Source: an uncultured Bacteroidales bacterium
GTDB lineage: Bacteria > Bacteroidota > Bacteroidia > Bacteroidales > UBA10428
Direction: 5' to 3'
Length of the DNA stretch: 64,000 nucleotides
NCBI GenBank assembly: GCA_964456825.1
Contig: CAYWCR010000012.1
Location: 1,223 to 65,222, forward strand
Shown here: piece after piece, positions 29,344 to 62,955 of the stretch
Numbering within the stretch: the first letter of the stretch is position 1
Layout of the letters: each line of letters begins with the position of its first letter
Made by a program: the position numbers and the translations under genes
The notes under the pieces: generated by a model
Seen by the model: only the letters and a program-made list of their open reading frames with translations
Database searches by the model: none
Told to the model about the DNA's origin: nothing

Positions 29344-29364
29344 GAACATTGAACAGTGAACAAT
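29344..29364. repeat. Heptamer array GAACAnT x3
   Basis: gaacatt gaacagt gaacaat. Same word family as 26506-26575. Confidence 0.7.
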
Positions 29365-29424
29365 GACCCTCCTTCGCCATGGTTAAGGCAGGCAAGTCAG
29401 TAAACAAAACATAAAACAGCATCT

Positions 29425-47676: not shown

Positions 47677-47747
47677 TATACCATGGTCAGTTCAAATAAA
47701 CAAATTGTGAATTCGTAGTAATCTGTCATGTTATCCGACGATTCCGG

Positions 47748-47777
47748 AACCGGTGTATCTTTGCACCGGTTTTTTTT
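47748..47777 (+). terminator. Intrinsic terminator after gnd
   Basis: aaccggtg (47748-47755) pairs with caccggtt (47764-47771), with an 8-nt loop and a T-run to 47777. Confidence 0.8.
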
Positions 47778-48022: not shown

Positions 48023-48931
48023 ATGTATAGAAAAGTACTTGTTGTTTATTATACCCAAACCGGTCAATTATTCGAAATCGTTAAATCCATAACAAATTCC
48101 CTTCAGGTTAACGGCGATATTGATGTTGTTTTCGAGGAACTTAAACCCAAATCTCCCTTCCCCTTTCCCTGGAGTTCAAACGAATTTTTTCAGGCTTTCC
48201 CGGAATCAGTGAAGGGAATACCGTGTGAACTTGAGTCCTTTACGGTTTCTCCCGACGAACCTTTTGATCTGGTGATCATCGCTTATCAGTCATGGTTTTT
48301 ATCTCCCTCCATACCTTTTCACGCTTTTTTTCAGCATGAAAGTACCAAACGGTTATTGGCAGGAAAGCCCGTAATAACCGTTATCGGTTGCCGCAACATG
48401 TGGGTAATGGCCCATGAGAATATGAAACAGTACATCAGGGAGGCTAATGGCAGGCTGGTAGGCAATATCGTGCTTCGGGATAAGGCGGCCAACCTGTTAA
48501 GCGTTGTGACCATTATTCGCTGGATGATGAAAGGTAAGAAAGACAGGTACCTGAGAATATTTCCCCCTGCCGGCATATCACACTCCGACATCGAAGGTGC
48601 TGCAATTTTTGGAAACATTATTTACTTATCTGTGCAACACGGAAATTTCGATAACCTGCGGAACGACCTTTTTGATGCCGGTGCAGTTACAGTGCAACCC
48701 GAATTGATTATGCTTGAAAAGAGAGGAAAGATTTTTTTCAACTTCTGGGCTGATTTTGCACTGAAAAAAGGTTCTTATGGCAGCAAATCAAGGAATTTCA
48801 GACTCATTCTTTTTAAATATTATCTGCTGACCGTTTTGTTCCTTGTTTCTCCGTTTGCCACCCTGGCCTTTTATCTTGCCAAACCATTCAGATACCGTTC
48901 CGTACAAAAACAAATAATGATGTTCCGGTAG
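48023..48931 (+). CDS. darA: DarA-like dialkylresorcinol condensing/aromatising enzyme (flavodoxin-like N-terminus)
   Basis: KVLVVYYTQTGQL flavodoxin-like start. About 300 aa with a hydrophobic C-terminal tail. Lies immediately upstream of a KAS III-like gene, as in dar loci. The family call is by recognition and context. Confidence 0.65.
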   Translation: MYRKVLVVYYTQTGQLFEIVKSITNSLQVNGDIDVVFEELKPKSPFPFPWSSNEFFQAFPESVKGIPCELESFTVSPDEPFDLVIIAYQSWFLSPSIPFHAFFQHESTKRLLAGKPVITVIGCRNMWVMAHENMKQYIREANGRLVGNIVLRDKAANLLSVVTIIRWMMKGKKDRYLRIFPPAGISHSDIEGAAIFGNIIYLSVQHGNFDNLRNDLFDAGAVTVQPELIMLEKRGKIFFNFWADFALKKGSYGSKSRNFRLILFKYYLLTVLFLVSPFATLAFYLAKPFRYRSVQKQIMMFR

Positions 48932-48969
48932 TGAGGCCGGATTCAATTTCTTATTAAGATTGCTGCTAT

Positions 48970-50106
48970 ATGATGAATAACGTTTTTATTACTGGAATTT
49001 CAAAGTTTTTGCCGAACAATCCTGTTTCGAATGACGAAATGGAGGAGTACATAGGCATGATCGGTAACAAACCATCCAAAGCCAGAAGAATAGTACTGAG
49101 GAACAACGGGATCACCACGCGGTATTATGCGCTTACAAAAGCGGGGAAACCTACTCACAGTAACGCAGAGCTTGCAGCGAATGCTGTTAATCAATTGTTT
49201 AATGCAGGATTTAAAAAAGACGAACTGGAATTGCTGGTCTGCGGTACTGCAACTCCCGATCAGATTATGCCATCTCATGCTTCGATGGTACACGGTCTGC
49301 TTGATATTCCCAGTATCGAGATTGCTTCTTTTGCCGGATCATGCTGTGCCAGCATGCAGGCATTAAAATATGCCAGGCTCTCAATAGCCGGAGGTAATAC
49401 CCGTAATGCAATTTGTACGGGTTCTGAAATACTCTCCCATTGGATGCTTGCCAAATATTTTGAAAACGAAATAAAAAACGAAGGCAACATTAAAGAAAAT
49501 CCGTTACTGGCCTTCGAGAAGGAGTTTCTGCGGTGGATGCTTTCGGATGGGGCGGGAGCAGTATTGCTCGAAAACAAGCCCTCCGGACCGCATCCCTTGA
49601 AAATTGAATGGATTGAGATAAGATCGTATGCAAATAGGATGGAAACCTGTATGTATGTTGGTGCCGAAAGGGATGGTAACGATAAGTTGTTGGGTTGGTG
49701 CAGGTTTGAACCTGAGGAATGGTTGACAAAATCAATTTTTTCAATGAAACAGGACACCCGGATGTTGGGTGCAAATATTGTTTCGCTGGGGGGACATTTT
49801 CTTAAAGATATTATTCTGAGGCGGGGCCTCGATATTGAAACGGTGGACTTTTTTTTGCCCCATCTCTCTTCAGAATTTTTCAGAGTAAACATTTATTCCG
49901 AACTTAGCCAACTGAATATCCATATTCCTAAAGAGAAGTGGTTCACGAATCTTACAAGAGTCGGAAATGTGGCTACTGCTTCTTTTTTGCTGATGCTTGA
50001 AGAACTGGTAAATACCCGGACGTTGAAGAAGGGGCAGAAAATACTGATACAGGTTCCGGAGAGTGCCAGATTTACTTATGCTTATGCGCTTTTAACCGTT
50101 TGTTAA
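48970..50106 (+). CDS. darB: KAS III-like ketosynthase (DarB-like)
   Basis: Thiolase fold with the nucleophile Cys in FAGSCCASMQALKYA, His in FFLPHLSSEFF and Asn in TRVGNVATASF. Confidence 0.75.
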   Translation: MMNNVFITGISKFLPNNPVSNDEMEEYIGMIGNKPSKARRIVLRNNGITTRYYALTKAGKPTHSNAELAANAVNQLFNAGFKKDELELLVCGTATPDQIMPSHASMVHGLLDIPSIEIASFAGSCCASMQALKYARLSIAGGNTRNAICTGSEILSHWMLAKYFENEIKNEGNIKENPLLAFEKEFLRWMLSDGAGAVLLENKPSGPHPLKIEWIEIRSYANRMETCMYVGAERDGNDKLLGWCRFEPEEWLTKSIFSMKQDTRMLGANIVSLGGHFLKDIILRRGLDIETVDFFLPHLSSEFFRVNIYSELSQLNIHIPKEKWFTNLTRVGNVATASFLLMLEELVNTRTLKKGQKILIQVPESARFTYAYALLTVC

Positions 50107-50117
50107 ACAGAAACCTA

Positions 50118-50549
50118 ATGAAAATTAACGAGGTACCGCAGGATGGAGCTTTTCTGGTTGAGGGCAAGATCCGTGACCTGTGTTATGTGGTTGATGACAA
50201 AGGCCATTATACAAAGGTACTGAGCAAAGGATGGACGCCAAAGAATGATGCCATCAGGCTTGCATGGAATATGATATATGAAAATGCCGAAGAGATCCGG
50301 CGACAGGTTCTTTCCGGCATATTGAGCCCCATTGCGCTTTTTATGGAACTTAATGTCATGGATGTGAGTATTCTGGCGAGTTACACGGGACTGCCCCGGC
50401 GAAAGGTACGAAAGCACCTGAAAATGAAAGGATTCAGAAAACTGTCACCCGAGCATATCCGGAAATATGCCGATGCACTGAATCTTACGGTTGATGAATT
50501 GACTGATATTGAAAGAATCCGCAGGATTGAGATCAAACATGAAAATTAA
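50118..50549 (+). CDS. Small HTH-like protein, paralogue 1
   Basis: The C-terminal half SILASYTGLPRRKVRKHLKMKGFRKLSPEHIRKYADALNLTVDEL resembles an XRE-type HTH. Paralogous to 59972-60484. Overlaps the next gene by 11 nt. Start taken at ATG 50118. Confidence 0.6.
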   Translation: MKINEVPQDGAFLVEGKIRDLCYVVDDKGHYTKVLSKGWTPKNDAIRLAWNMIYENAEEIRRQVLSGILSPIALFMELNVMDVSILASYTGLPRRKVRKHLKMKGFRKLSPEHIRKYADALNLTVDELTDIERIRRIEIKHEN

Positions 50550-51540
50550 TTTTCATCACAGCCAGGCTGCACATTGTGAGAACGGTGTGACATCCAATCT
50601 TTTAAGATTTCATGGCATTAACCTGAGTGAACCCATGATCTTTGGTATCGGATCAGGATATTTCTTTTCCCACATGCCCTTTTACAAGCTCAACGGCATG
50701 GCTGTGACTTCCTTCAGGGTATGGCCCGGCCTGATTTTCAGCCGCGTTACCCGCAGGTTGAATATTACCGTCAGGCGCAGAAAATTCAGCAATCCCGGTA
50801 AAGCCATGCAGGAACTTGACCGGATGCTTGATAAGGGAATCCCGGTAGGCATGCTGGTGGGTGTTTTTCACCTGCCTTATTTTCCCAAAGAATACAGATT
50901 CCATTTTAATGCGCACAATATTACAGTTTTTGGCAGGGAAGGCGATCATTACCAGGTAAGCGATCCGGTGATGGAAAACATGGAGAAACTTACCTCGGAA
51001 GAGCTTAAAGCAGTGAGGTATGCAAAGGGAACTCATCCGCCCCAAGGCCGGATGTATTACATCACCAGCCTGCCTGGTCAGATTGACATCAAACCAGCCA
51101 TCATCAGGGGTATCCATAAGACTGCCAGCGATATGCTCACGATTCCCCTGCCGATGTTTGGTGTTAAGGGTATCCGGTACCTGGCAAAAAGAATGCGAAA
51201 GTGGCCGGAAAAATATGGTAATAAATTCGCTGCACTCAATCTCAGCCAGGTGGTCCGCATGCTCGAGGAAATCGGCACAGGCGGTGCCGGTTTCCGGTTC
51301 ATCTATGCTGCCTTTTTACAGGAGAGTGCAGAGGTCCTCGGCAAACCCTGGCTGAATGAAGCCAGCAAGGACATGACGGAAATCGGTGACGCATGGCGTG
51401 AGTTCGCCTATCAGTCAGGCCGGCATTTCAAAAACCGGAATAACGGAGATATATCCTATGATTCACTTGCAGATAGACTGATGATAATTGCCGACATGGA
51501 AGAAAAGGTCTTTGAACAACTCAGGTCATTAAGGCCATGA
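50539..51540 (+). CDS. BtrH_N-domain (papain-like Cys fold) protein, paralogue 1
   Basis: N-terminal AAHCENG...SEPMIFGIGSGYFF is typical of the butirosin BtrH N-terminal domain. Candidate His (NAHNITVFG) and Asp (VSD). C-terminal GTGGAGFRFIYAAFLQE block. Start at MKINFHH. Confidence 0.7.
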   Translation: MKINFHHSQAAHCENGVTSNLLRFHGINLSEPMIFGIGSGYFFSHMPFYKLNGMAVTSFRVWPGLIFSRVTRRLNITVRRRKFSNPGKAMQELDRMLDKGIPVGMLVGVFHLPYFPKEYRFHFNAHNITVFGREGDHYQVSDPVMENMEKLTSEELKAVRYAKGTHPPQGRMYYITSLPGQIDIKPAIIRGIHKTASDMLTIPLPMFGVKGIRYLAKRMRKWPEKYGNKFAALNLSQVVRMLEEIGTGGAGFRFIYAAFLQESAEVLGKPWLNEASKDMTEIGDAWREFAYQSGRHFKNRNNGDISYDSLADRLMIIADMEEKVFEQLRSLRP

Positions 51541-52292
51541 CATCTGCAAACAGGGTTATTACCATTGAAGGCCTGACCAAGGTATATAAAGGAAGCACCA
51601 GGCCTGCACTGAACAACGTGAGCCTTGACGTTGCAAGAGGTCATATCCTCGGTCTGCTCGGACCGAACGGGGCGGGTAAGACTACTATGATCAGGATCCT
51701 TTGCGGCTTGCTTTCTCCAACTTCCGGTGAGATATACATCAACAGCTTTTCCGTAAGGAGGCAATTGCATGAGATTCGCAGGATCATTGGTGTGGTGCCA
51801 CAGGAAATAGCCTTATATCCTAGCCTTACTGCATACGAAAATCTTTCGGTTTACGGAGGTATTTGCGGACTCAAGGGCTGGACCCTGGAACAACGTATTG
51901 ACGAATTGCTCCCGGTATTCGGTCTTGAGAAAAGCCTTCACAACAAAGTGATCCATTTTTCCGGTGGAATGAAACGGAGGCTGAATCTTATGGTTGGCTT
52001 GTTGCATAACCCCCAGATCCTCTTTCTTGATGAACCCACCGTAGGCGTAGATGTGCAATCAAAAAAAGTGATCCTGGAGAACCTGGTGGCCATTAACCGT
52101 GCAGGCACCACCATGATTTATACCTCACATTATCTTGAGGAAGCTGAGAACCTTTGTACCGACATCGCCATTATTGACGAGGGACAGATCATCATCCAGG
52201 GATCCATGGATGAAATCAGAAATTCCGGCAGGTTTTCCGGTTCTCTGGAGGAGATTTTTATTGCATTGACCGGGAAGGCACTCAGAGATTAA
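51537..52292 (+). CDS. ABC transporter ATP-binding protein, copy 1
   Basis: Walker A GPNGAGKTT, signature SGGMKRRL, Walker B ILFLDEPT. ATGA overlap with the upstream gene. Confidence 0.9.
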   Translation: MTSANRVITIEGLTKVYKGSTRPALNNVSLDVARGHILGLLGPNGAGKTTMIRILCGLLSPTSGEIYINSFSVRRQLHEIRRIIGVVPQEIALYPSLTAYENLSVYGGICGLKGWTLEQRIDELLPVFGLEKSLHNKVIHFSGGMKRRLNLMVGLLHNPQILFLDEPTVGVDVQSKKVILENLVAINRAGTTMIYTSHYLEEAENLCTDIAIIDEGQIIIQGSMDEIRNSGRFSGSLEEIFIALTGKALRD

Positions 52293-52301
52293 TAAAGGCA
52301 T

Positions 52302-53573
52302 ATGCTGGCAAAACTGATCTATAAAGACATACTGGTGCTCATTCGTGACAGGAGCGGACTGGCCATGTTATTCATCATGCCGCTGGCACTGGTCCTCATT
52401 ATGACAAGCCTGCAGGATTCAACTTTCAGATCCATGAATGAACGCGGAATAAGCCTGCTGCTGCTAAATCATGATAACGATTCCATGGGACTTGCCATAG
52501 AAAGGGAAATAAAGGCTTCTGATATCTTTTCCGTTCATCAACCGGCAAACATCAAAGAATATACCGATCAGCAGGTAAAGGAAGCAATTGCTTCCGGGCA
52601 TTACCAGATCGGTTTGATTATCCCGCCCAATGCCACACAAAAGATCCGGAACCGTGTAAAAGAAAATCTGACAACAGTTCTGTCCGGCGCCAGCATCATC
52701 CATAATGCTTCCGATTCCATTACTTTTGTGGTTTATTTGGACCCGGCGACCCGGTCTACGCTTCGCTCAACAGTGGAGGTTTCGGTTCGTGAACTGGCCT
52801 CACGGATTGAATCACAAATTGTTTTAAGCGAGCTGGCGAAAGAAATCGGCGCCCGCATGATGATCCCTCTAACAGACCCGGGACTGTTAAGACAGAAATC
52901 TGTATTTTACAGGGAAGAATATGCTGTCAAAGGAAATAAAAAGGCTATACCGGATTCTGTGCAACATAATGTTTCAGCCTGGACACTTTTTGCCATGTTC
53001 TTCATCGGAATTCCCTTTGCCGGAGCCATGATCAAGGAAAGAGAAGAGGGCAGCCTGGCGCGTCTGCTCACGATGCCGTGCTCGTATGGTTCCATCATGA
53101 TCAGCAAGGTGCTCGTTTACCTGTTCGTTTGTTATGTGCAGTTCATCCTGATCATGGGCATGGGGATCTACTTATTCCCGTTGCTTAAGCTTCCCGCTTT
53201 AATTATGGACGGACGGTTGGGGACACTTTCCGTAATGGCCATAACGGTTGCACTGGCTGCAATAGGATACGGAATTGCGATAGGGACAATAGCCAGGACT
53301 CATCAGCAGGCTTCCATATTTGCTTCCATCTCAGTGGTCATACTGGCTGCCATTGGCGGAATCTGGGTGCCCATCTTTATGATGCCCCCTTTGTTTCGCC
53401 ACATAAGCAAGGTATCTCCCCTGAACTGGGGATTGAACGGTTTCTACGATATCCTTATACGGGGTTCCGGCCTTCAGGATATTATTCCCTATATGGTATA
53501 CTTGTTGATTTTTACTGCCGGCTGTCTGCTGTTGTCCTTGTATTATCAAAAACTCAGAAAGGAAAATACCTGA
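52302..53573 (+). CDS. ABC-2 type transporter permease, copy 1
   Basis: N-terminal TM helix, a large extracytoplasmic loop, then five C-terminal TM helices. 9 nt after the ATPase gene. Confidence 0.8.
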   Translation: MLAKLIYKDILVLIRDRSGLAMLFIMPLALVLIMTSLQDSTFRSMNERGISLLLLNHDNDSMGLAIEREIKASDIFSVHQPANIKEYTDQQVKEAIASGHYQIGLIIPPNATQKIRNRVKENLTTVLSGASIIHNASDSITFVVYLDPATRSTLRSTVEVSVRELASRIESQIVLSELAKEIGARMMIPLTDPGLLRQKSVFYREEYAVKGNKKAIPDSVQHNVSAWTLFAMFFIGIPFAGAMIKEREEGSLARLLTMPCSYGSIMISKVLVYLFVCYVQFILIMGMGIYLFPLLKLPALIMDGRLGTLSVMAITVALAAIGYGIAIGTIARTHQQASIFASISVVILAAIGGIWVPIFMMPPLFRHISKVSPLNWGLNGFYDILIRGSGLQDIIPYMVYLLIFTAGCLLLSLYYQKLRKENT

Positions 53574-53778
53574 CTGCCGGTGGCCACGAAAGGTAAATCT
53601 TCAGTCATTGGATCGGGCATGATCTCGTTGTTAATTCCAAATTGACAGGCCGGGATTATTTTATATCTTAACTTTATGTAAAATTGTACAATTTTTGTCG
53701 GTTGAAATGTTTTGACCGCTTTTAAACCAAACAAGCCTGATAATTGTTTTTAGTAGCAGACTCTTAAATAACCTAAGG

Positions 53779-54042
53779 ATGATGGAAGAATTAATTATTC
53801 AGCTTAAAAAAGATATCATTGAAGCGCTTTCACTTGAAGATGTTGTTCCGGATGATTTCGATGCAGACACACCGCTTTTTGTTGAAGGACTGGGTTTGGA
53901 TTCCATCGATGCACTGGAATTGATCTTGCTGATGGAGAGAAAATATCAGGTTAAAATAGAGGATCCCAAAGAACGTCGCACTGTATTGCGCAATGTCAGA
54001 GCTATGGCAGAATGCATCCAGCAAAATAAAATCAAGCAATAA
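53779..54042 (+). CDS. Acyl carrier protein 1
   Basis: 87 aa. Phosphopantetheine attachment motif LGLDSIDALEL. Confidence 0.85.
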   Translation: MMEELIIQLKKDIIEALSLEDVVPDDFDADTPLFVEGLGLDSIDALELILLMERKYQVKIEDPKERRTVLRNVRAMAECIQQNKIKQ

Positions 54043-54044
54043 GA

Positions 54045-55235
54045 ATGCCACAGAGGGTTTTTGTGACCGGCGTTGGAATAATTTCGGCAACGGGAAATGG
54101 CACCGGGGAAAACCTTGCATCTTTTTATGATTTACGAACGGGTATCGGCAACCTTTCGCATCTTGCCTCTGTTCACAGCCATATTCCCGTTGCTGAGGTC
54201 AATCAATCAAATGAAGGCCTTGCGGAAATCGCGGGAGCGGATTTAACGGAGGGGAAATACTCGCGCAATACCCTGCTGGCATTGATTGCCTCACAACAAG
54301 CATTTGCAGATGCCGGATCACCGGATTTGTCAGGCAGACGCACCGGCATCATTTTTGCTACCACAACAGGCGGCATGGATTTGAACGAACGTTATTATAA
54401 ATCACTGCTGCAGGAAGGTACGTTTAAAGATTACATCCCTTTTTTTGATAGTGCTGATTGTACCGAGAGAATAGCAAGTTATTTCGGCGTCAGGCATAAC
54501 ATTACAACCATTTCTACAGCCTGTTCATCTTCCGCAAATGCTATTATGCATGGTGTCAGGATGATACGCAATCATAATGTCCACAGGATACTGGTCGGAG
54601 GGGCTGATGCCATCACCCGGTTCACCCTGAATGGTTTTTTAGCCCTTGAAATTGTGTCTCCTACCGGATGCAGGCCTTTTGACCAGTTCCGGAATGGGCT
54701 CACGATAGGTGAAGGGGCTGCCGCCCTAATGCTTGAATCGGAAGAAATGGCGGATCCTTCGAGGATAATCTGCGAGATTACCGGGTATGCCAATGTAAAT
54801 GAAGCCTATCATCAGACATCCTCCTCTGCGGATGGCATGGGTGCTATGATGGCCATGCAGCAGGCATTGGAAATTGCAGGCCTGCATGATCATGATATCA
54901 GCTATATAAATGCCCATGGAACAGGAACTGAAATCAATGACTTGTCAGAAGGCAGGGCGATCGAACATGTTTTTCAGGGAGGCATACCGCCGGTAAGCTC
55001 AACCAAGGCATTCACGGGTCATACATTGGGCGCTGCAGGCGCAGTTGAAGCCGTATTTGCGGTGTTATCCATCCGGCATCAGATCATCCTGCCGGGCATC
55101 AACTGTTTGAATCCGATGCCTGAATTAACATTCCGGCCACCGGCCAGCGTTCTGAAAGCTGTTGTTAACCATGTCATTTCCAATTCATTTGGATTCGGAG
55201 GGAACAATACATCCCTGATATTTTCGAAAGCCTAA
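54045..55235 (+). CDS. Beta-ketoacyl-ACP synthase (KS-alpha, FabF-like)
   Basis: Active-site Cys in ISTACSSSANAI. His residues in INAHGTGTE and FTGHTLGAAG. C-terminal SNSFGFGGNN. Confidence 0.9.
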   Translation: MPQRVFVTGVGIISATGNGTGENLASFYDLRTGIGNLSHLASVHSHIPVAEVNQSNEGLAEIAGADLTEGKYSRNTLLALIASQQAFADAGSPDLSGRRTGIIFATTTGGMDLNERYYKSLLQEGTFKDYIPFFDSADCTERIASYFGVRHNITTISTACSSSANAIMHGVRMIRNHNVHRILVGGADAITRFTLNGFLALEIVSPTGCRPFDQFRNGLTIGEGAAALMLESEEMADPSRIICEITGYANVNEAYHQTSSSADGMGAMMAMQQALEIAGLHDHDISYINAHGTGTEINDLSEGRAIEHVFQGGIPPVSSTKAFTGHTLGAAGAVEAVFAVLSIRHQIILPGINCLNPMPELTFRPPASVLKAVVNHVISNSFGFGGNNTSLIFSKA

Positions 55236-55236
55236 G

Positions 55237-56310
55237 ATGAAAGCATATATTACGGCAAACGGCATTATTTCCCCACAACATACCCATGATGCGACGGGGT
55301 TGCCCGGTCATTTTGAGACCCGGATATCAAACCGGCTTACCTGCATCGAACCCGATTACCGTACCCTGATAAACCCAATTCTATTAAGGCGAATGCCCAG
55401 GATCTTGAAGATGGGACTGGCCTCTTCGCAATTGTGTATCAACCGGTCTGGAAACATTCAGCCGGATGCGATCATTGTGGGTACCGGATTGGGATGTTTG
55501 CATAATCTTGAGCAATTTCTAACGGAAATGCTGTCGAATAATGAGCATATAACCAGTGTCCTTCCTTTTATCAACTCAACCCACAATGCTGTAGCTTCGC
55601 AAATAGCCATGCTGTTGAAAAACCATAACTACAATTTGACCTATTGTCACCGCGGATTTTCATTTGAAAGTGCATGTTTGGACGCCCTGATGCACCTTGC
55701 GGAAAAGCATGCTGAACATATTCTGGTTGGAGGGATCGACGAATGCACGGAGGATTTCATGAATCTGCATGGATATCTGGAATACTGGAAACATCCGGTT
55801 GATACGCTTGGTCTGTTGAATAATAAGACCACCGGAACAATTGCCGGGGAGGGTTCTGCTTTTTTCATGTTGTCGCGTGAATCAGGAAATAATGCGTCTA
55901 TTGCCCTCCGGGGGGTTCATACCTTTGTTACTTCCGATGATGCGCCTGCTCATGAAATTGAATCGGAAATAGATTATTTTATACAGGATAAAGGCCTCCA
56001 TCAGGATTGCCTTGACCTGGTAATTCTCGGAATGAATGGCGATGTTCGGTATGACAAGATTTACGATTATCTCCGGCAATCTTATTTTACCGGCAAAACG
56101 GGTTTTGCCGTGTACAAACCCCTGTGCGGAGAGTATTATACTTCCTCTGCCTTTGCTTTATGGCTTGCCACGGTTGTGCTGAATCAACAGATGGTACCCG
56201 CCCCGGTGTGCCTGTCTCCTGCCGCACCAGTGATGATTAAAAATGTTATGATATACAATCATATCCGTAATGTTGAGCATACCCTGATGCTGGTAACGGC
56301 TGATGGATGA
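55237..56310 (+). CDS. KS-beta / chain-length-factor-like ketosynthase homologue lacking the catalytic Cys
   Basis: Thiolase-fold size and position. The nucleophile-elbow region reads INSTHNAVASQIA, with no Cys. The start is 1 nt after the KS stop. Confidence 0.7.
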   Translation: MKAYITANGIISPQHTHDATGLPGHFETRISNRLTCIEPDYRTLINPILLRRMPRILKMGLASSQLCINRSGNIQPDAIIVGTGLGCLHNLEQFLTEMLSNNEHITSVLPFINSTHNAVASQIAMLLKNHNYNLTYCHRGFSFESACLDALMHLAEKHAEHILVGGIDECTEDFMNLHGYLEYWKHPVDTLGLLNNKTTGTIAGEGSAFFMLSRESGNNASIALRGVHTFVTSDDAPAHEIESEIDYFIQDKGLHQDCLDLVILGMNGDVRYDKIYDYLRQSYFTGKTGFAVYKPLCGEYYTSSAFALWLATVVLNQQMVPAPVCLSPAAPVMIKNVMIYNHIRNVEHTLMLVTADG

Positions 56311-56371
56311 CTAGCAGAGACAAAAGGCCATGCCGCTCTGAAACCGGTTGCAGGTTACCGGTTACCTTCTT

Positions 56372-57463
56372 CTACATCTTCTCTGCCTCAATCAGGCTGA
56401 GCGGCGCAACCGTCCGGCGGATCTTTCGTATCCGGAATCCGGCTTTTTGGAGCAGGGCGGAATACTCAGCTTTGGTCCTTTCCTTTCCTCCGACGGCCAC
56501 CATCATCAGCACATCAGACATTTTGCCAAAGGAAGGCCGGTTACCCGCTGGGATGATCGATTCCATGATCAACAGTCTCGATCCGGCGGACATGGCTTTG
56601 CGCAGATTGCTGAGTATTTTCAGACATGCCTCATCCGCCCAGTCATGCAAAACACTTTTAAGCATGTACAGGTCCCCTCCTTCGGGTAAACTTTCGAAAA
56701 AGCTGCCGGCTATGAATTTGCACCGGTCAGCAATACCATATTGCTCAATCATTTCCATGGCCTGGCCTTGCGCCTGCGGCAGATCAAATACTATGCCCCT
56801 GCACCCGGGGAATTTATTCAGCACCGAAGCCATCATCAGGCCTTGCCCACCGCCTATATCAAAAATATTCCTGTAGGGCCGGAATGAATATACGGATAAA
56901 ATGGCGGCAACCTGCATCATGGATGCACTGGTCATGGCTTTTATGAACAATTCATTACGCTTTTCATCCGCTCCTATATGATCAAAAAGAGCATGGCCGG
57001 TAAAAAGTTCAGCAGCATTTTTGCCCGTTCGAACGCAATAGGCGAGTTCACTGAACATGTTATAATGCAATTTGGTCAGGTGACCGGTGATAAGATATTT
57101 TAACTGTTCTTCCTGTAACGCTTTTGCCAGGGGTGTCAGAAAGAAGATCCGGTCGACATGTTCCCTGAATACATCATGCGATGCCAGCATCCGCATAAGC
57201 CTGTACAGTGATTCTTCATCCGAGCCGGTCTGCGAAGCCAGTTCACCGATGGGTTTTGGTCCCTTCTTTAAGATATCTGCAATACCTAATTCGGCTGCTA
57301 CTCCAATAGCCGACGCCAGCCAGAAATGATGGACCATTTCAAAAACGGCCACATTAGGATGAGTGAACTTCCTGTATAATCGTAAAAAAAAGGACCGCAT
57401 CCTTTCCGTTATGCTGACAAAAAACAAGGGTGGATAATGCGGAAATTCCGGGCTCTTCTTCAT
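56372..57463 (-). CDS. SAM-dependent O-methyltransferase (COMT / Methyltransf_2-like)
   Basis: SAM motif I IFDIGGGQG. N-terminal dimerisation/winged-helix-like region. DLYMLKSVLHDW block. It is the only reverse-strand gene in the cluster. Confidence 0.8.
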   Translation of the reverse strand: MKKSPEFPHYPPLFFVSITERMRSFFLRLYRKFTHPNVAVFEMVHHFWLASAIGVAAELGIADILKKGPKPIGELASQTGSDEESLYRLMRMLASHDVFREHVDRIFFLTPLAKALQEEQLKYLITGHLTKLHYNMFSELAYCVRTGKNAAELFTGHALFDHIGADEKRNELFIKAMTSASMMQVAAILSVYSFRPYRNIFDIGGGQGLMMASVLNKFPGCRGIVFDLPQAQGQAMEMIEQYGIADRCKFIAGSFFESLPEGGDLYMLKSVLHDWADEACLKILSNLRKAMSAGSRLLIMESIIPAGNRPSFGKMSDVLMMVAVGGKERTKAEYSALLQKAGFRIRKIRRTVAPLSLIEAEKM

Positions 57464-57584
57464 GCGGTGAATTGCTTATTTTATACAAACATAAAGAAAG
57501 GTGGGCTTATTTTTTGAACTTTTGAACCTAAATCGCATATTTGTCTCAGCAAATCGGATTGTCTGTTTCTTATCGCTACTATAC

Positions 57585-58337
57585 ATGAGCCCTGATCCTG
57601 CTATTATTGCCACGAATCTGAAAAAGCGATATAAAGGTTCAGAAGAGGAGGCTTTGAAAGGCATAAACCTGACCCTGCAACCGGGCGATTTTTTTGGATT
57701 ATTGGGGCCCAATGCTGCCGGCAAGTCAACCTTAATCGCCATACTGTGCGGTGTTATGGGATACTCTTCCGGTGAGGTTAAGATTTTTGGAAAAGCGGTT
57801 GACCGGCATGCTGATGGGTTGAAAACAAAGATTGGTCTTGTCCCGCAGGAAATAGCCCTGTACCCGTCACTTACGGTATTGGAAAATATACTTTTTTTTG
57901 GCAGGATGCACGGATTATCGGGGAAAAACCTGCAACAAAAGACGGATGAATGGTTGGCAACATTTCATCTGGCTGAACACAGCAACAAACTGATATCAAA
58001 ATGCTCAGGAGGAATTAAAAGGCGCGTGAATCTTATTACTGGCATTCTGCATGAGCCATCGCTGATCCTGCTGGATGAACCCACTTTAGGGGTTGACACC
58101 CAGCTGCGCTCCATGATCTTTGATTATCTGATAGCGTTGAACAAAGCCGGCACTACAATCCTATACACCACCCATTATATGGAGGAGGCAGAATTACTAT
58201 GCAACCGGGTTGGTATTATGGACCACGGGCTGATCATCACCGAAGGAAGACCTATGCATCTGATAGCTGCCATGCCCGGATGCAATACGCTGGGACAGCT
58301 GTTTTTAAATCTGACTGGCAGGGATTTGAGGGATTAA
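57585..58337 (+). CDS. ABC transporter ATP-binding protein, copy 2
   Basis: Walker A GPNAAGKST, signature SGGIKRRV, Walker B LILLDEPT. Start taken at MSPDPAII (57585). Confidence 0.9.
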   Translation: MSPDPAIIATNLKKRYKGSEEEALKGINLTLQPGDFFGLLGPNAAGKSTLIAILCGVMGYSSGEVKIFGKAVDRHADGLKTKIGLVPQEIALYPSLTVLENILFFGRMHGLSGKNLQQKTDEWLATFHLAEHSNKLISKCSGGIKRRVNLITGILHEPSLILLDEPTLGVDTQLRSMIFDYLIALNKAGTTILYTTHYMEEAELLCNRVGIMDHGLIITEGRPMHLIAAMPGCNTLGQLFLNLTGRDLRD

Positions 58338-58500
58338 TGGGAAGAAGAGGAAGAGAGACAGAGAGACTGAGAGAAAGAGGGATGGAGAGAGGGGATAAGT
58401 GGCAGGAGGCAGCGGCAGTAAACAGGAAGCAGTAGCAGTAGGCAGCGGAAGAAAATTCGGAAATCGAAAATCAACTATGGTAAATCGCAGATCAAAATAG
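58338..58500. repeat. Low-complexity spacer: about 90% purine tract, then GGCAG/AGCAG words, then AAATC words
   Basis: 58339-58400 has 6 pyrimidines in 62 nt. 58401-58446 contains GCAG seven times. 58451-58497 reads ggaaatcgaaaatcaac...taaatcgcagatcaaaa. Confidence 0.85.
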
Positions 58501-58549
58501 AACCAGGACATATAACTGTAAACGTATTTAGGAAACCGAATAGCTTGTA

Positions 58550-59935
58550 TTGGTGAAGAAATATCTTGCTATAGTAAAAAAAGAGTATCTTCAGGTCGTA
58601 CGTGACCTGCCCGGGCTTGCCATCCTATTCCTTATGCCGGCCCTGATGTTGATTGTCATTGCCCTTACCCAGGAAAAGGTGATTATCGGTAGGGAATCCG
58701 GAATGAGGATCATCCTTGTCAATGCCGATTCATCGGCCTTCGGCAACAGCATCGGGAATGAAATGAAAGCTAATCTTCGTTTTGACCTGGTGGCATATGC
58801 TTCAGAGAAAGAAGCAGAAAAAGATGTTTTTAACGGAAAATTTCAGTTGATGGTGGTAATCCCGGATAGTTCTACGGAAAGACTAGTGGCATCGGCCCGC
58901 CGTCAAAGTTGCGATATTACCGGGATCTCAACGGAGGGAGATGAAAAACAGTCCGCCGTTATTTTGCTATATGATCCTGCCGTAATGGAGATATACAAGG
59001 ACATGCTGGCTTCATCCCTGCATATGATCATCGAATCGACAGCGATGAAAATATTCATGGAAACATATAAGGAGTCTATAAAATCAGATATTGCAGAGCA
59101 ATTTGCAGCTTATAGAAAAGAATTGCTGTCCGTTGATGTTATCAGTGAAATGCCTGACTTTCCCTATAAAAAGCAGGTTTTGCAGCAATTTAAATCAGGT
59201 ATAGAAAAGAGGAGGGGGGAAACAATTCAGATTAAGCTGCCCCAAGATAATAAGTCATGCAAGAGTCTTGTTACGATAAAAGAGACAAGCGCCGGCAACA
59301 AAATCTATAACCTGAAACCCGATATCGTCAAAAACAATGTTCCCGCCTTCATCCTGTTTGCCATGTTTTTTATTGTCATACCCCTGGCCGGCAGCATTAT
59401 CAATGAAAAGCAACAGGGAACAAAAGACCGGCTGATGACCCTGCCGGTTTCAGGTTTTACTTTTCTTTCGGGCAAGATTACTGTTTACCTTTTGGTCTGT
59501 ATCCTGCAATTCATGCTGATGGTTGGCATCGGAATATACATCTTCCCGCGTATCAGCCAGTTGCCTCCGCTATCTCTTGACGTGAATCCTGGTGCGCTTT
59601 GGGCGGTCGTAATAGCATCCGGACTGGCCGCCATCGGATTTGGCATGTTGATAGGGACTGTATCAACCACCTACGGTCAGGCCGCTCCGTTAGGATCTGT
59701 GATGGTTGTTGTACTGGCCATTCTGGGAGGCATTTTTGTCCCGTCTTTCATGATGCCTGATTTAATCCGAAAGATTAGCATCATTTCACCCTTACGTTGG
59801 GGGACTGATGCTTTTTTCAGTATTTTTGCCAGGGGAGCAGGAATAAAGGTTGTCCTCCCCCAATTAATTTCTTTATTGATATTTTTTGGAATAGCAATGC
59901 TTGTTTCTATGAGGGTATATACGAAACGAAAATGA
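58550..59935 (+). CDS. ABC-2 type transporter permease, copy 2
   Basis: Same architecture as copy 1. TTG (58550) or GTG (58553) start. Confidence 0.8.
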   Translation: MVKKYLAIVKKEYLQVVRDLPGLAILFLMPALMLIVIALTQEKVIIGRESGMRIILVNADSSAFGNSIGNEMKANLRFDLVAYASEKEAEKDVFNGKFQLMVVIPDSSTERLVASARRQSCDITGISTEGDEKQSAVILLYDPAVMEIYKDMLASSLHMIIESTAMKIFMETYKESIKSDIAEQFAAYRKELLSVDVISEMPDFPYKKQVLQQFKSGIEKRRGETIQIKLPQDNKSCKSLVTIKETSAGNKIYNLKPDIVKNNVPAFILFAMFFIVIPLAGSIINEKQQGTKDRLMTLPVSGFTFLSGKITVYLLVCILQFMLMVGIGIYIFPRISQLPPLSLDVNPGALWAVVIASGLAAIGFGMLIGTVSTTYGQAAPLGSVMVVVLAILGGIFVPSFMMPDLIRKISIISPLRWGTDAFFSIFARGAGIKVVLPQLISLLIFFGIAMLVSMRVYTKRK

Positions 59936-59971
59936 ACAATTCATGATTTCTTTAGCAAGATTCACGGGGTT

Positions 59972-60484
59972 ATGAAAGAAAAAGATATTCTGATCGATTA
60001 TAAGGATCACCAGGTTGTCCTGTATGCTGAAAAGAGTGATAACACTATCGGACCTGTACAGACCGGCTCTTATGTTACCAGTCATTATTATAATGAATTC
60101 TTAAGCCTTATGGGAAGCCTGGAAAGGTCTCTATACGAAAAGCTGCAGAAAGGAGAGATCAGTCCTGTCTTCCTTTACATGACCCTTGAAGAACTTACCG
60201 TGTCAGAACTGGCGCTGAGGGTGAAGATCCCCTTGCGCAGGGTAAAAAAGCATCTCACCGTCAAGCATTTCCCTGCCGTCAAAGTAGATGAACTCAGGCG
60301 TTATGCAGAAGTATTCAATATTCCCGTGGCCAATTTTTTTCAGGTCATTGCTACACGACAGGATAACAAATGGCGCATGGGTTATTCGGCCGATATGGAA
60401 AATAAAAAACCGTTGACCATCTCCCAAGAAGAGACGAATAATCCTTATGTTGTTTTCACCAAACCCGAGATCAACCAGCCATGA
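59972..60484 (+). CDS. Small HTH-like protein, paralogue 2
   Basis: ISPVFLYMTLEELTVSELALRVKIPLRRVKKHLTVKHFPAVKVDELRRYAEVFNIPV aligns with paralogue 1. ATGA overlap with the next gene. Confidence 0.6.
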   Translation: MKEKDILIDYKDHQVVLYAEKSDNTIGPVQTGSYVTSHYYNEFLSLMGSLERSLYEKLQKGEISPVFLYMTLEELTVSELALRVKIPLRRVKKHLTVKHFPAVKVDELRRYAEVFNIPVANFFQVIATRQDNKWRMGYSADMENKKPLTISQEETNNPYVVFTKPEINQP

Positions 60485-61485
60485 GCACCATCCCTTTCAG
60501 TCATGTTATGGCTGCTCATTGTGAATCAGGCACGGTGACTGCCTTATTGAACTTTCATGGATTGAAAGTCTCAGAGCCTATGGTTTTCGGAATATCCGGT
60601 GGTATCTTTTTCGGTTATATGAAAACACCGATGCATACATTCCCCTCGGTTTTCGCAAGGATTAAACCAGGCCATATCCTGAAGAACTTTTCAAAAAGGA
60701 CAGGGATAGAATTTAAAACCAGAACATATAAAGACCCGGCTAAAGCTGAAATGGAGCTGGATAGCTTGCTGGAACAGAACCAACCCGTTGGCATCCAGGT
60801 GGACTTCTTTTATATGGACTATTTTCCTTCCTGGTATCGCGTTCATATTAATGTGCATTTTCTCACGGTCATTGGAAAAAAAGGGGATAAATATATCGTT
60901 AGTGATTGTTATCATCCTGTAATTACGGAGATCGGAAAAGATTCGCTTCGCAAGGGCAGATTTGCCGGAGGCAGTATGGCCCCCAGGGGATTCATGTGTT
61001 ACCCTGTAAATGTGCCCAAAGATAAGGATTTCAGCAAAGGAATTATAACCGGTATTAAAACTGCCACTTTCAACATGCTCAGGATTCCCATGCCCTTTTT
61101 AGGCGTTAAAGGGATCCGGCGATTTGCCGACAAAATTTCCGAATGGCCAAAATATGCAAGGGATACCGAACAGCTGGCTCATGAAATCTTCAAGATCAAT
61201 GTTATGCTGGAAGACCAGGGCACCGGAGGAGGTGGATTCCGTTACCTCTATGCCTCTTTCCTGCGGGAAGCAGCTCAGCTGATGAACAGACCTGAATGGC
61301 ATGAGCTTTCCGGGAGGTTGATGGATATCGGTGACGGATGGAGGCAGATATCCCTGTTTGCTTCCAGAATTGGGAAAAGCCGTGATCTTGGTGTTCCAAA
61401 ACTGAAAGAACTGGGTAAACTGATAAGCGCCAGGGCTGATCTTGAGTATTGTTTCTTTAATGATTTAAGAAAGACTATTGCATGA
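60481..61485 (+). CDS. BtrH_N-domain (papain-like Cys fold) protein, paralogue 2
   Basis: AAHCESG...SEPMVFGISGGIFF, NVHFLTVIG, VSD, GVKGIRRF, GTGGGGFRYLYASFLRE. Roughly one third of residues are identical to paralogue 1 by eye. Confidence 0.7.
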   Translation: MSTIPFSHVMAAHCESGTVTALLNFHGLKVSEPMVFGISGGIFFGYMKTPMHTFPSVFARIKPGHILKNFSKRTGIEFKTRTYKDPAKAEMELDSLLEQNQPVGIQVDFFYMDYFPSWYRVHINVHFLTVIGKKGDKYIVSDCYHPVITEIGKDSLRKGRFAGGSMAPRGFMCYPVNVPKDKDFSKGIITGIKTATFNMLRIPMPFLGVKGIRRFADKISEWPKYARDTEQLAHEIFKINVMLEDQGTGGGGFRYLYASFLREAAQLMNRPEWHELSGRLMDIGDGWRQISLFASRIGKSRDLGVPKLKELGKLISARADLEYCFFNDLRKTIA

Positions 61486-61775
61486 AGGAAAATCTGACAA
61501 ACATGACAGGACTTACCCTAAAGGATATCAAACTTGAAATAAAGAATTTGATCGTCACAACCCTGAATATGGGAAATGTTAATCCTGAAGAAATTCTGGA
61601 TGATGTTCCGTTATTGAGCGGCGAGAATGTGATCACCATTGACTCCATCGATGTGTTGGAAGTTGTTGTAGCCATTCAGAAACGGTTCAATGTCAGAATG
61701 GATGATCAGAATCTGGTACGGCATATCGTTAATACCGTCAACACCCTGGCAGATTTTGTCTATGCCCGGCAGTAA
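61482..61775 (+). CDS. Acyl carrier protein 2
   Basis: 97 aa. ITIDSIDVLEVVVAI phosphopantetheine motif. ATGA overlap with the upstream BtrH-like gene. Confidence 0.8.
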   Translation: MKENLTNMTGLTLKDIKLEIKNLIVTTLNMGNVNPEEILDDVPLLSGENVITIDSIDVLEVVVAIQKRFNVRMDDQNLVRHIVNTVNTLADFVYARQ

Positions 61776-61863
61776 AAAAACACAGTCTGCTCAAATACCT
61801 GAGTTGGTTCCCAAGTAAAAAACGCATGCTTTACCTTGTTTTACCAGTTAGATTGTATTTTCT

Positions 61864-62955
61864 ATGAACATGATCCATCTCCTGACCGGGATCAGGTCTC
61901 CTGTTTTGTTCAGGATGCTGGTGAGGAACGGAGTTTCATTTGGCCCCAATATGATACAGCTTCCGATGCTGCTGGTCAATTCTTTGATTTCCTCCATTCT
62001 GACTGGCGTTGAGAGAATAAAATATACCCAGAGTATCAAAAGGACCGTCATTGAAAAATCCCCTGTTTTTATCATTGGACATTGGCGTTCGGGGACAACC
62101 TATCTGCACCAGTTGATGCATCTAGATCCCCAGTTCACGGCTCCTTCAGTGGTACAGACCGTGATCCCCGACCACTTTCTGTTCAGTACAAAGTACTATA
62201 TCCCCGTCATGAAACTGTTGATGCCGAAAAAACGCCCCATGGATGAAGTGATGATCTCGCCCCTGGATCCGCAGGAAGATGAATTTGCATTGATCAGGTT
62301 GGGATCGGAAAGCCCGCTGGAGAAAATTGTTTTTCCGGCAGGCAATGAATATTTTCTTGCCGGTTATGATAAATATATCCCGGAGGGAGTAAGGCTGAAA
62401 GTATGGAAACAAAACCTGCTGAACTTTTACAAAAAGATAACATGGCTGACCGGCAAACAGATTGTGTCAAAGAATCCTTTCCATACCATGCGCATGCCAT
62501 TGTTGAGAAGCATGTTCCCGGGAGCCAGGTTTATTCATATCAGGCGTCATCCCTTCGAGGTTGTTCCCTCAACCATTAAGATGTGGAATACGGTTGCAGC
62601 ACATTACAGCCTTAAGAATGGCTGGAAAAAGCCCGGAATTGATGAGGTTTCATCGGTGCTGCGCTCCTTCGATGATTATGTATCTCATGAGAAACAACTG
62701 ATGGGTGAGCATGAATATGCCGAGGTACGTTTTGAGAATCTGGAGAAAGACCCCGTTGAAGAACTGAGAAAGATCTATGCTGAACTGAACCTGGAATTTT
62801 CCGGAACTTTCGAAAGGGAGATAAAAAGATTCCTGGAATCCCATAAGGAGTATGCAAAAAATATTTACCATCTGACCCAAAAGGAAAAGGATGTTATAGG
62901 GAGCATTCTGGGTGGAAATGTGGAACAGTGGAATTGTGGAATGATGGAAGACTGA
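61864..62955 (+). CDS. PAPS-dependent sulfotransferase family protein
   Basis: 5'-phosphosulfate-binding loop IIGHWRSGTTYLH and 3'-phosphate-binding block FIHIRRHPFEVVPS. Confidence 0.8.
   Translation: MNMIHLLTGIRSPVLFRMLVRNGVSFGPNMIQLPMLLVNSLISSILTGVERIKYTQSIKRTVIEKSPVFIIGHWRSGTTYLHQLMHLDPQFTAPSVVQTVIPDHFLFSTKYYIPVMKLLMPKKRPMDEVMISPLDPQEDEFALIRLGSESPLEKIVFPAGNEYFLAGYDKYIPEGVRLKVWKQNLLNFYKKITWLTGKQIVSKNPFHTMRMPLLRSMFPGARFIHIRRHPFEVVPSTIKMWNTVAAHYSLKNGWKKPGIDEVSSVLRSFDDYVSHEKQLMGEHEYAEVRFENLEKDPVEELRKIYAELNLEFSGTFEREIKRFLESHKEYAKNIYHLTQKEKDVIGSILGGNVEQWNCGMMED

Follow-up and report, generated by a model that had tools for sequence, protein, structure and literature searches.

The 64,000-nucleotide stretch analysed here, called the window below, belongs to an uncultured Bacteroidales bacterium (contig CAYWCR010000012.1 of assembly GCA_964456825.1). 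Sixteen contiguous genes at positions 48023-62955 had been taken, in an earlier sequence-only reading, for one compact cluster and a candidate new resorcinol-type lipid pathway. They are two separable modules rather than a single new cluster. Judging from family matches and gene order, genes 1-9 (module A) are the canonical, already described dar operon for dialkylresorcinol (DAR) synthesis. Genes 10-16 (module B) are, on comparative synteny, an autonomous cassette that is found without the dar genes between the same flanks in two related loci, L007 and L097 (loci in related genomes carry L numbers). The claim of a new pathway was overstated, as the resorcinol chemistry is known. The new element is a second set of DarG, DarH and acyl carrier protein (ACP) genes together with a sulfotransferase and a COMT-type O-methyltransferase. 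The explanation held to be probable, if only just, is that both modules are sub-clusters of a flexirubin-type pathway (aryl-polyene plus dialkylresorcinol), with sulfation and O-methylation as new tailoring steps.

All sixteen open reading frames (ORFs) were recovered from the ORF list of the window exactly where they had been placed; fifteen are + strand genes, and one, that of the O-methyltransferase, is read from the - strand. Families were called by Pfam and NCBIfam profile searches, and NCBIfam scores were judged against curated cut-offs. Most of the original guesses at gene families were confirmed, often above these cut-offs. The modules and the elements that delimit them are listed below.

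48023-56310, + strand: module A, the dar (dialkylresorcinol) operon, genes 1-9
56372-62955: module B, genes 10-16, with a divergent O-methyltransferase, an exporter of the ATP-binding cassette (ABC) class ABC-2, DarG2, DarH2, ACP2 and a sulfotransferase of the 3'-phosphoadenosine 5'-phosphosulfate (PAPS) type
46222-47676: gnd (6PGD), upstream neighbour of module A
47746-47773, + strand: terminator-like hairpin 3' of gnd, with a 12-bp stem (5 GC pairs) followed by a T run
56342-56363: hairpin with a 7-bp stem (AACCGGT...ACCGGTT) in the 61-nt convergent gap between the last gene of module A, resembling a chain-length factor (CLF), and the O-methyltransferase

The gnd terminator, which had been noticed before, is real, and it is the upstream limit of module A. 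At the other end, a longer copy of the contig carries peptidase C26, DUF1573, DjlA, CoaE, YbbR, YajC and NusB 3' of the sulfotransferase. Since only housekeeping genes follow, the cluster ends at 62955, as had been proposed. The spacing is as tight as described: neighbouring genes overlap by 4 nt at 51537, 60481 and 61482, and the other gaps measure 1-38 nt, except upstream of ACP1 (205 nt), permease 2 (212 nt) and the sulfotransferase (88 nt). The hairpin at 56342-56363 likely ends both converging transcripts. This convergent hairpin gap and a divergent gap of 121 nt at 57464-57584, between the O-methyltransferase and ABC ATPase 2, imply at least three transcription units in the region. A scan limited to sigma-70-type promoters returned 26 sites where 29 were expected from shuffled sequence, that is, no excess. 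The GC content of 0.42-0.47 over 48-63 kb is unremarkable. An ORF of 189 aa at 56307-56876 (+), antisense to the O-methyltransferase and overlapping the CLF-like stop by 4 nt, matched no Pfam or NCBIfam family and is probably spurious.

The nine genes of module A are as follows.

48023-48931, + strand: DarA-like protein of 302 aa, presumed aromatase (cyclohexanedione to resorcinol)
48970-50106, + strand: DarB, a dialkylresorcinol/cyclohexanedione-forming ketosynthase resembling beta-ketoacyl-ACP synthase III (KAS III) (NF053539 resorcinol_DarB, 559.8 bits, cut-off 550)
50100-50549, + strand: DarG family protein (NF053536 DarG_fam, 135 bits, cut-off 70; Pfam HTH_26, 24.3 bits, cut-off 22), start probably at 50118
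50509-51540, + strand: DarH, predicted BtrH-related papain-like ACP-dependent acyltransferase (NF053550 DarH_acyl, 455.5 bits, cut-off 300; Pfam BtrH_N and DUF4872), start probably at 50539
51537-52292, + strand: ABC ATPase, DarI in Chitinophaga pinensis naming (ABC_tran, E 5e-35; DrrA-like)
52302-53573, + strand: ABC-2 permease, DarJ in C. pinensis naming (ABC2_membrane_3, E 2.5e-34)
53779-54042, + strand: ACP1, the acyl carrier protein DarC (PP-binding, E 2e-8; NF006617, 70.3 bits; GLDS serine motif)
54045-55235, + strand: beta-ketoacyl-ACP synthase (KS), DarD/DarJ (ketoacyl-synt N and C domains; C160, H291, H326, i.e., Cys-His-His)
55237-56310, + strand: Cys-less KS-like partner (CLF-like), DarK in Azoarcus naming (weak KS-like matches only)

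The curated matches to DarB, DarG and DarH, combined with the published gene order, identify module A as the known operon. The DAR cluster of Azoarcus sp. BH72 consists of darA, darB, darD (hypothetical), darE (BtrH-like), darF (ABC ATPase), a toxin-antitoxin pair, darI (permease), darC (ACP), darJ (KS) and darK (hypothetical) (Schoener et al., PMC3949708). For C. pinensis, a 2026 paper (PMC12968099) gives the order darA, darB, darG, darH (with a BtrH N-terminal domain), darI, darJ, darC and darD. The order in the window, darA-darB-darG-darH-ABC-ABC2-ACP-KS-CLF, agrees with both lists, and genes 1-9 correspond, family by family and in sequence, to the dar operons of C. pinensis, Flavobacterium johnsoniae and Azoarcus sp. 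BH72 (PMC3949708, PMC3992019, PMC12968099). On long contigs, the nearest homologues of DarA (64-66% identity; L092-L094) likewise head the same nine genes, which are 60-86% identical to those of the window, and a pair of KS and Cys-less partner is the standard 3' end of these operons. CLF-like orthologues with 60-71% identity follow the KS in L013 and L092-L094.

The dar operon of the window differs from the known ones in its surroundings. In L092-L094 it occupies another genomic site, next to the his operon and then FlxV-like desaturases, whereas in the window the operon is followed by module B at that place. Moreover, no polyene genes lie nearby, and the organism is an uncultured, Bacteroidales-like one known from metagenomes only. 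With aryl-polyene and type II polyketide synthase systems the window shares the KS-CLF pair, but not the ketoreductase and dehydratase of polyene formation, neither of which was found by family searches in the cluster or in the 64-kb window. In the dar operons of L092 (15675-16535) and L093 (11369-12235), a cation-efflux gene of the cation diffusion facilitator family separates the ABC-2 permease gene from that of the ACP; neither the window nor L094 has this insertion.

The active-site residues that had been read from the translations are present. DarB, which also passes NF005293 (538.9 bits, cut-off 450), has the Cys-His-Asn set C125/126, H298 and N333. The KS has its Cys-His-His triad, and in the CLF-like protein E144 is aligned with Cys160 of the KS and the HGTGT motif is absent. 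The two small proteins once described simply as "HTH-like" (helix-turn-helix) are better placed in the DarG family. The DarG of module A has the HTH_26 match, and its N-terminal domain is followed by a C-terminal half that resembles a Cro/C1-type HTH, while DarG2 remains below the DarG threshold (44 bits, cut-off 70). Searches of PDB sequences with DarG, DarG2 and DarH2 returned nothing significant.

Gene 1 has the weakest identity in the operon. DarA and DarB had been proposed for the ORFs at 48023 and 48970. The second of these passes its model, but the first has no match in Pfam, NCBIfam or a PDB sequence search. A tblastn search matched it, at 36.5% identity across 97% of its length, to the gene that opens a hypothetical-KASIII-ACP trio on a Burkholderia pseudomallei plasmid. 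This plasmid homologue is unnamed, the trio has the classic darABC layout, and none of the 4328 homologues of the DarA-like protein carries a name. In the relatives L092-L094, the gene always stands immediately 5' of DarB. An AlphaFold2 (AF2) model (predicted local distance difference test, pLDDT, 81) matches flavodoxins, WrbA, PnpB and flavin mononucleotide flavoproteins over its N-terminal ~155 aa, with target-normalised template modelling (TM) scores of 0.5-0.73. This flavodoxin-like fold fits the published role of a "DAR-aromatase" (oxidase). Position, identity to the plasmid trio and the modelled fold together allow gene 1 to be presumed to be DarA.

Module B contains seven genes.

56372-57463, - strand: COMT-type small-molecule O-methyltransferase (Methyltransf_2 and Dimerisation, E 1e-51; DIGGGQG and LHDW motifs)
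57501-58337, + strand: ABC ATPase 2 (ABC_tran, E 5e-28), 45% identical to the module A ATPase, start probably at 57585, giving 250 aa as called in relatives
58550-59935, + strand: ABC-2 permease 2 (ABC2_membrane_3, E 5e-35), 33% identical to the module A permease
59972-60484, + strand: DarG2, divergent DarG-family protein of 170 aa (DarG_fam, 44 bits)
60481-61485, + strand: DarH2, predicted papain-like carrier-protein-dependent transacylase (DarH_acyl, 315.8 bits, cut-off 300; BtrH_N, E 1e-40; DUF4872, E 2e-44)
61482-61775, + strand: ACP2 carrier protein (PP-binding, E 2e-5), 23% identical to ACP1
61864-62955, + strand: PAPS-type sulfotransferase (Sulfotransfer_3, PF13469, E 7e-33)

The same flanks without dar genes in L007 and L097, together with the recurring core, show the cassette to be autonomous by synteny. 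A scan of one genome per species with a sulfotransferase alignment returned 80 loci, 42 of them Bacteroidota-type. The core DarG2-DarH2-ACP2-sulfotransferase is present in 40/42 Bacteroidota species genomes; 33 also have the ABC-2 permease and 29 the O-methyltransferase. All 42 genomes are metagenome-assembled genomes (MAGs), with no isolate among them. Sulfotransferase homologues in Planctomycetota, Fibrobacterota and other phyla are at most 37% identical and stand without any gene of the cassette. In L007/L014 (Bacteroidales MAG GCA_016928305.1), the flanks are those of the window: Lar_N, a pdxB-like gene and gnd on one side, and DUF1573, DUF5606, DjlA, CoaE, YbbR, YajC and NusB on the other. 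The interval contains solely the O-methyltransferase (-), ABC, permease, DarG2, DarH2, ACP2 and sulfotransferase genes at 58-77% identity, with no dar operon. The locus tag of L007, JW973, matches none of the DarA homologues listed. L097, whose DarH2 is 80% identical, has the same flanks and cassette, again with no dar operon. Furthermore, the 3' genes of the dar operon (KS and CLF) are missing upstream of module B in 30 of the 31 loci with at least 8 kb of upstream sequence. The junction from CLF to O-methyltransferase seen in the window is repeated only in L013. The boundary drawn from adjacency was wrong, and it was comparative synteny that split a known operon from a separate cassette, which is a lesson for cluster mining. 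A metagenome scan with the O-methyltransferase found two close relatives only, both on contigs below 2 kb, from which no frequency of the composite arrangement can be derived. No paper describing the cassette was found in the literature, although absence from the searched library is no proof that it is undescribed.

The genes of the cassette are closely associated. DarG2 is present in 42/44 related loci and adjoins DarH2 in nearly all of them; its C-terminal 70 aa are 34% identical to DarG. DarH2 is 38.7% identical to DarH. ACP2 overlaps the stop of DarH2 by 4 nt and is the next gene after it in 39/44 loci; its DS serine is at least 90% conserved (41 sequences). ACP2 and the sulfotransferase are also consecutive in 39/44 loci. 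The sulfotransferase has invariant G72, H73, W74, R75, G77 and T79 (GHWRxGxT) as well as R228, P235 and S236 (27 sequences). By inspection against what is typical of the family, GHWRxGxT (resembling the 5'-phosphosulfate-binding motif) and R228...P235-S236 are taken to be the phosphosulfate and 3'-phosphate motifs. Its relatives in the PDB are only distant (2z6v, 2zq5 and the CurM sulfotransferase, the last with E 0.002). A supply of PAPS is indicated in some relatives: an adenosine 5'-phosphosulfate (APS) kinase gene lies immediately 5' of the cassette in L016-L018, accompanied by CysN in L017 and L018. The O-methyltransferase is not FlxJ (27.9 bits, cut-off 560); its PDB sequence matches are AlpH, 6c5b, CalO6 and MmcR (E 1e-64 to 1e-72), which act on aromatic hydroxyls.

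Minor variations of the cassette were also seen. A tandem duplicate of DarG2 precedes DarH2 in one MAG (L017, 5949-7200). ATPase 2 and permease 2 are 212 nt apart (58338-58549), and part of this gap, at ~58340-58450, is rich in purines and in GA/GGA repeats. The corresponding gap measures only 21 nt in L007 and 16 nt in L097, but it is long in L002 and L003 (copies from the window's own lineage), with a 32-aa ORF called there.

The link to flexirubin comes from relatives of module B. Its orthologues adjoin FlxY, FlxA, FlxB and FlxU/V/W-like genes, and DAR is the alcohol half of flexirubin. By ORF clustering and family search, the FlxY equivalog (714.8 bits, cut-off 520) was found beside the cassette in 22 loci, 3' of the sulfotransferase in most. 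In C. pinensis, FlxY has been characterised as the 4-coumarate-CoA ligase with which polyene synthesis for flexirubin begins (PMC3992019). Upstream of the cassette, L052 has the FlxA tyrosine ammonia-lyase (746.6 bits, cut-off 700), the FlxB reductase (388 bits, cut-off 340), a KS, an ACP and an LpxL-like acyltransferase. The genes that run co-directionally into ABC-permease-DarG2-DarH2-ACP2-sulfotransferase in L050 encode an FlxU-like acyltransferase/methyltransferase, an FlxV-like desaturase, a C45 Ntn-hydrolase (FlxW-like), an AcpS-type phosphopantetheinyl transferase (PPTase) and FlxY. FlxV-like genes adjoin dar operons (L092-L094) as well as module B (L050, L046, L030). In L030, a dar-like set DarG-DarH-ACP-KS-CLF (1-3500, -), without DarA and DarB, is divergent from a complete module B (6096-11089, +). 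In these more distant species, the cassette is, to judge from its predicted neighbours, embedded in flexirubin-type clusters. The sequence-only reading had argued from missing genes, among them those for tyrosine ammonia-lyase, ligase, ketoreductase, dehydratase and LolA, that the locus is not simply a flexirubin cluster. This argument fails since DAR clusters are often unlinked from polyene clusters (7/16 genomes), as in Azoarcus and in C. pinensis with Cpin_6850/51 and Cpin_1853-1877 (PMC3949708), and orthologous cassettes stand beside FlxY, FlxA and FlxB. The flx gene list of F. johnsoniae and C. pinensis, as given in a legend of PMC12968099, has one DarG/DarH pair, the methyltransferase FlxJ and no sulfotransferase. 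Compared with these clusters, the window has no flx genes and has a COMT-type O-methyltransferase in place of FlxJ.

The flanks of these loci hold further genes. In L019-L052 (Prolixibacteraceae-type and other MAGs), a B12-binding radical S-adenosylmethionine (SAM) protein occurs in 18 loci and a TonB-dependent-receptor-like protein in 21. Proteins with no family match are also found there, namely one of 128 aa (17 loci), one of 697 aa (8 loci) and two small ones (15-16 loci). In L030, three tandem paralogous ORFs of 190-200 aa, from no known family, lie between the dar-like set and module B.

With both modules regarded as sub-clusters of a flexirubin-type pathway, the following scheme can be drawn. 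DarB would convert two fatty-acid-derived thioesters into a 2,5-dialkylcyclohexanedione, which the flavodoxin-like DarA would turn into a 2,5-dialkylresorcinol. The ACP, the KS and its Cys-less partner would supply or carry acyl units, and DarG and DarH with the ABC-2 transporter would serve ACP-dependent acyl transfer and export. In module B, which would have a divergent promoter region of its own, an acyl or aryl-acyl group bound to ACP2 would be taken over by Cys14 of DarH2, which would hand it on to an acceptor with a hydroxyl or an amine, following the logic of AsbC/D/E and CtaG/BtrH. DAR would be the obvious acceptor candidate here. The loading ligase could be the FlxY that stands beside the cassette in the 22 related genomes and would be encoded outside this window, as would the genes for the polyene and the aryl starter, in another part of the genome. 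The COMT-type O-methyltransferase and the PAPS-dependent sulfotransferase may tailor phenolic or other hydroxyls, and the second ABC-2 transporter would export the product. This product is likely an O-sulfated and/or O-methylated DAR-containing ester, a modified flexirubin-type lipid. It can reasonably be inferred that it is a sulfated and/or O-methylated phenolic compound which involves ACP-dependent acyl transfer and ABC export. We further infer the donor, the acceptor, the order of the steps and the action of modules A and B on one molecule. In L009 (6017-6913), L012 and L015, a DUF1295 membrane protein and a large efflux gene of the resistance-nodulation-division (RND)/OEP type stand beside the O-methyltransferase on the same strand, which suggests an alternative or additional export route.

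A number of observations weigh against a flexirubin-type pathway with new tailoring. Family searches, and tblastn with the Flx proteins of related loci, found no FlxA, FlxB, FlxY, FlxV, FlxU or FlxW-like gene in the 64-kb window or 10 kb downstream. That this organism has a flexirubin-type pathway is thus an assumption and not an observation. The FlxY neighbours come from more distant cassettes, in which the sulfotransferase is 37-44% identical. The closest clade (L007, L012-L018, L097) has RND, DUF1295 or PAPS-supply genes beside the cassette instead, with FlxY absent over a distance of 10 kb. The dar operon adjoins module B in only 2-3 of ~45 loci. In the nearest relative, L095/L096 (DarH2 82% identical), the sulfotransferase is reduced to a piece of its C-terminal part (aa 243-351, 45% identity; L095 5636-5962, L096 3471-3797), and the O-methyltransferase, both ABC genes, DarG2, DarH2 and ACP2 are intact. 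The remnant is probably real gene decay since it is present in two independent assemblies, so sulfation may be dispensable. To our knowledge, DarG and DarH have been studied biochemically in no organism. Finally, DarA and DarB alone are sufficient to make DAR in E. coli (PMC3992019).

Two other explanations turn on whether the modules belong together. All sixteen genes might form one self-contained pathway, independent of flexirubin, in which a free dialkylresorcinol is O-methylated and/or O-sulfated, receives acyl groups from the BtrH-like enzymes and leaves the cell through two ABC-2 pumps. The adjacency of the modules here and in L013 points in this direction, as do the absence of polyene genes within 48 kb upstream and 10 kb downstream and the similarity of the O-methyltransferase to phenolic O-methyltransferases, including the orsellinate-modifying CalO6. 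Neither the dehydratases nor the LolA, acyltransferase and exporter genes of the flx cluster were found over the same distances from the dar genes. There is also a precedent at the product level: panosialins of Streptomyces are sulfated alkyl-benzenediols and show that sulfate esters of resorcinol-type lipids exist (PMC10054515). However, they come from a different phylum, have mono-alkyl chemistry and no known tie to DarA/DarB or module B. The near-constant absence of KS and CLF upstream of module B, the same flanks without dar in L007 and L097, the separation of the modules into distinct transcription units by the hairpin and the divergent gap, and the orthologous cassettes that sit with flexirubin genes all make a self-contained pathway rather unlikely.

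Alternatively, the modules could be chance neighbours after a rearrangement. Module A would then serve an ordinary flexirubin-type pigment, and module B an unrelated, AsbCDE-like transfer to a lipid, sugar or amine followed by sulfation. Such an origin would fit the location of the dar operon elsewhere in relatives (L092-L094), the loss of the sulfotransferase in L095/L096 while the rest persists, and the varied company of the autonomous module B, which includes RND pumps, DUF1295, TonB-dependent receptors, B12-radical SAM proteins and LpxL-like acyltransferases. It is nevertheless considered unlikely. Five of the seven module B genes are paralogous to dar genes (23-45% identity, in a different order), DarH2 passes the DarH cut-off, and module B repeatedly adjoins flexirubin-specific genes that also flank dar operons (the FlxV-like genes of L092-L094 and of L050, L046 and L030). 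A flexirubin-type pathway that comprises both modules remains the preferred explanation.

In the chemistry proposed for module B, DarH2 is predicted to be a papain-like carrier-dependent transacylase with a putative Cys/His/Asp triad. Its AF2 model (pLDDT 80, predicted TM score 0.83) has strands and helices at residues 14-176 and an all-helical part at 185-333. Foldseek searches with the model returned AziU3/U2 (best, E 6e-11), CtaG (E 3.5e-9 at a TM score of 0.66) and CcbD in a range from E 6e-11 to 4e-6, with query-normalised TM scores of ~0.6-0.67 overall and 0.63-0.67 for CtaG. C14, H122, N124, H126 and D142 are invariant in 23 sequences, DarH included, at positions comparable to C11, H128 and D144 of CtaG. 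CtaG is a papain-like ligase with the triad C11-H128-D144 and a ping-pong mechanism via a Cys-bound intermediate (PMC12865890). It moves p-hydroxybenzoate from a carrier protein via Cys11 to the acceptor, and AsbE and BtrH are structural homologues with free acceptors (PMC12865890, PMC7183216). The predicted transacylase fold, the adjacent carrier with its conserved Ser and FlxY in relatives suggest that FlxY-ACP2-DarH2 would mirror, by analogy, AsbC-AsbD-AsbE.

Several features are common to DarH2 and the class formed by CtaG (closthioamide), AsbE with AsbC/AsbD (petrobactin), BtrH/BtrI (butirosin) and CcbD: the BtrH_N domain, the Cys/His/Asp residues, a predicted two-part fold with an N-terminal alpha/beta and a C-terminal helical domain, and a neighbouring carrier-protein gene, with an adenylating ligase adjacent in the 22 related loci. 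On the other hand, DarH2 is at most 16% identical to the solved structures and has an obligate small partner, DarG2, as well as an adjacent sulfotransferase and O-methyltransferase. Its acceptor may also be a phenol (giving an ester) rather than an amine (giving an amide).

The top fold match raises another scenario, in which sulfate is only a transient leaving group. A hydroxyl on an ACP2-bound or free intermediate would be activated by sulfation, after which DarH2 and DarG2 would eliminate the sulfate or close a ring in the manner of AziU3/U2, or the product would be off-loaded by decarboxylation as in the CurM arrangement of ACP, sulfotransferase and thioesterase. According to the summary in PMC9570651, AziU3/U2 acts after sulfation by displacing sulfate (Kurosawa 2022). 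AziU3/AziU2 forms the aziridine of azinomycin by sulfate elimination, and its cluster contains a sulfotransferase gene, as module B does. In CurM and olefin synthases, the carrier stands directly before the sulfotransferase, and the CurM sulfotransferase is among the few PDB matches of its counterpart in module B. Yet DarH2 retains the putative catalytic Cys, along with the His and Asp typical of the transacylases CtaG and BtrH, and the canonical DarH (39% identical) works in operons without a sulfotransferase. Moreover, module B lacks an amino-group carrier protein pathway, and the partner DarG2 is a 170-aa HTH-like protein and not a second BtrH-fold subunit. The module B proteins are stand-alone, no thioesterase is present, the similarity to CurM is marginal, and the cassette outlives the decay of the sulfotransferase in L095/L096. 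This makes a leaving-group role highly improbable.

Module B also resembles a conjugation-and-efflux system, which would methylate or sulfate phenolics and then pump them out for detoxification or resistance: an O-methyltransferase, a sulfotransferase and ABC-2/RND pumps recall phase-II conjugation with subsequent export. However, a carrier protein of its own and a transacylase that depends on it are hallmarks of biosynthesis, and several genomes have FlxY, FlxA, FlxB and the PPTase in the same direction as the cassette, so detoxification is scarcely credible.

Flexirubin-type pigments serve as chemotaxonomic markers, although there are gaps in the understanding of how they are assembled, notably in how the polyene acid is joined to the resorcinol and in the role of DarG and DarH. 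The DarG2-DarH2-ACP2-sulfotransferase cassette with its O-methyltransferase and exporter might represent a branch of flexirubin/dialkylresorcinol chemistry that has yet to be described, in Bacteroidota that are uncultured and for the most part anaerobic. It would yield sulfated or methoxylated aryl-acyl or DAR esters, or would use sulfate as an activating group for new BtrH-fold chemistry. Such a branch is a doubtful idea. If it is true, the sulfated or methoxylated products would escape the classical potassium hydroxide pigment test, and the DarG/DarH pair could receive a first functional assignment, e.g., the ester-forming step of flexirubin assembly. The presence of the cassette in dozens of uncultured Bacteroidota species points to a tailored pigment or lipid class that would be missed by standard tests and current cluster annotations. 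The cassette is also a tractable handle on papain-like carrier-protein-dependent ligases outside peptide and aminoglycoside pathways.

The remaining 48 kb of the window contain carbohydrate, DNA-repair, aromatic amino-acid and extracytoplasmic-function sigma factor genes, and family searches found nothing polyketide-like there. The aromatic amino-acid block at 24567-30198 encodes a prephenate dehydratase, a fusion of 3-deoxy-D-arabino-heptulosonate 7-phosphate (DAHP) synthase and chorismate mutase, a dehydroquinate synthase, a type I dehydroquinase domain protein, a chorismate synthase and a prephenate dehydrogenase-like protein. Tyrosine or aryl precursors could come from this block, but 18 kb separate it from the cluster and it resembles a housekeeping set. 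A 737-aa protein at 11596-13809 (-) consists of a patatin-like phospholipase fused to a beta-barrel of the Omp85 superfamily. A 901-aa secreted protein at 2138-4843 (-) has lamin-tail, CHB_HEX_C/Fn3-associated, CotH kinase-like and type IX secretion system (T9SS) C-terminal sorting domains.

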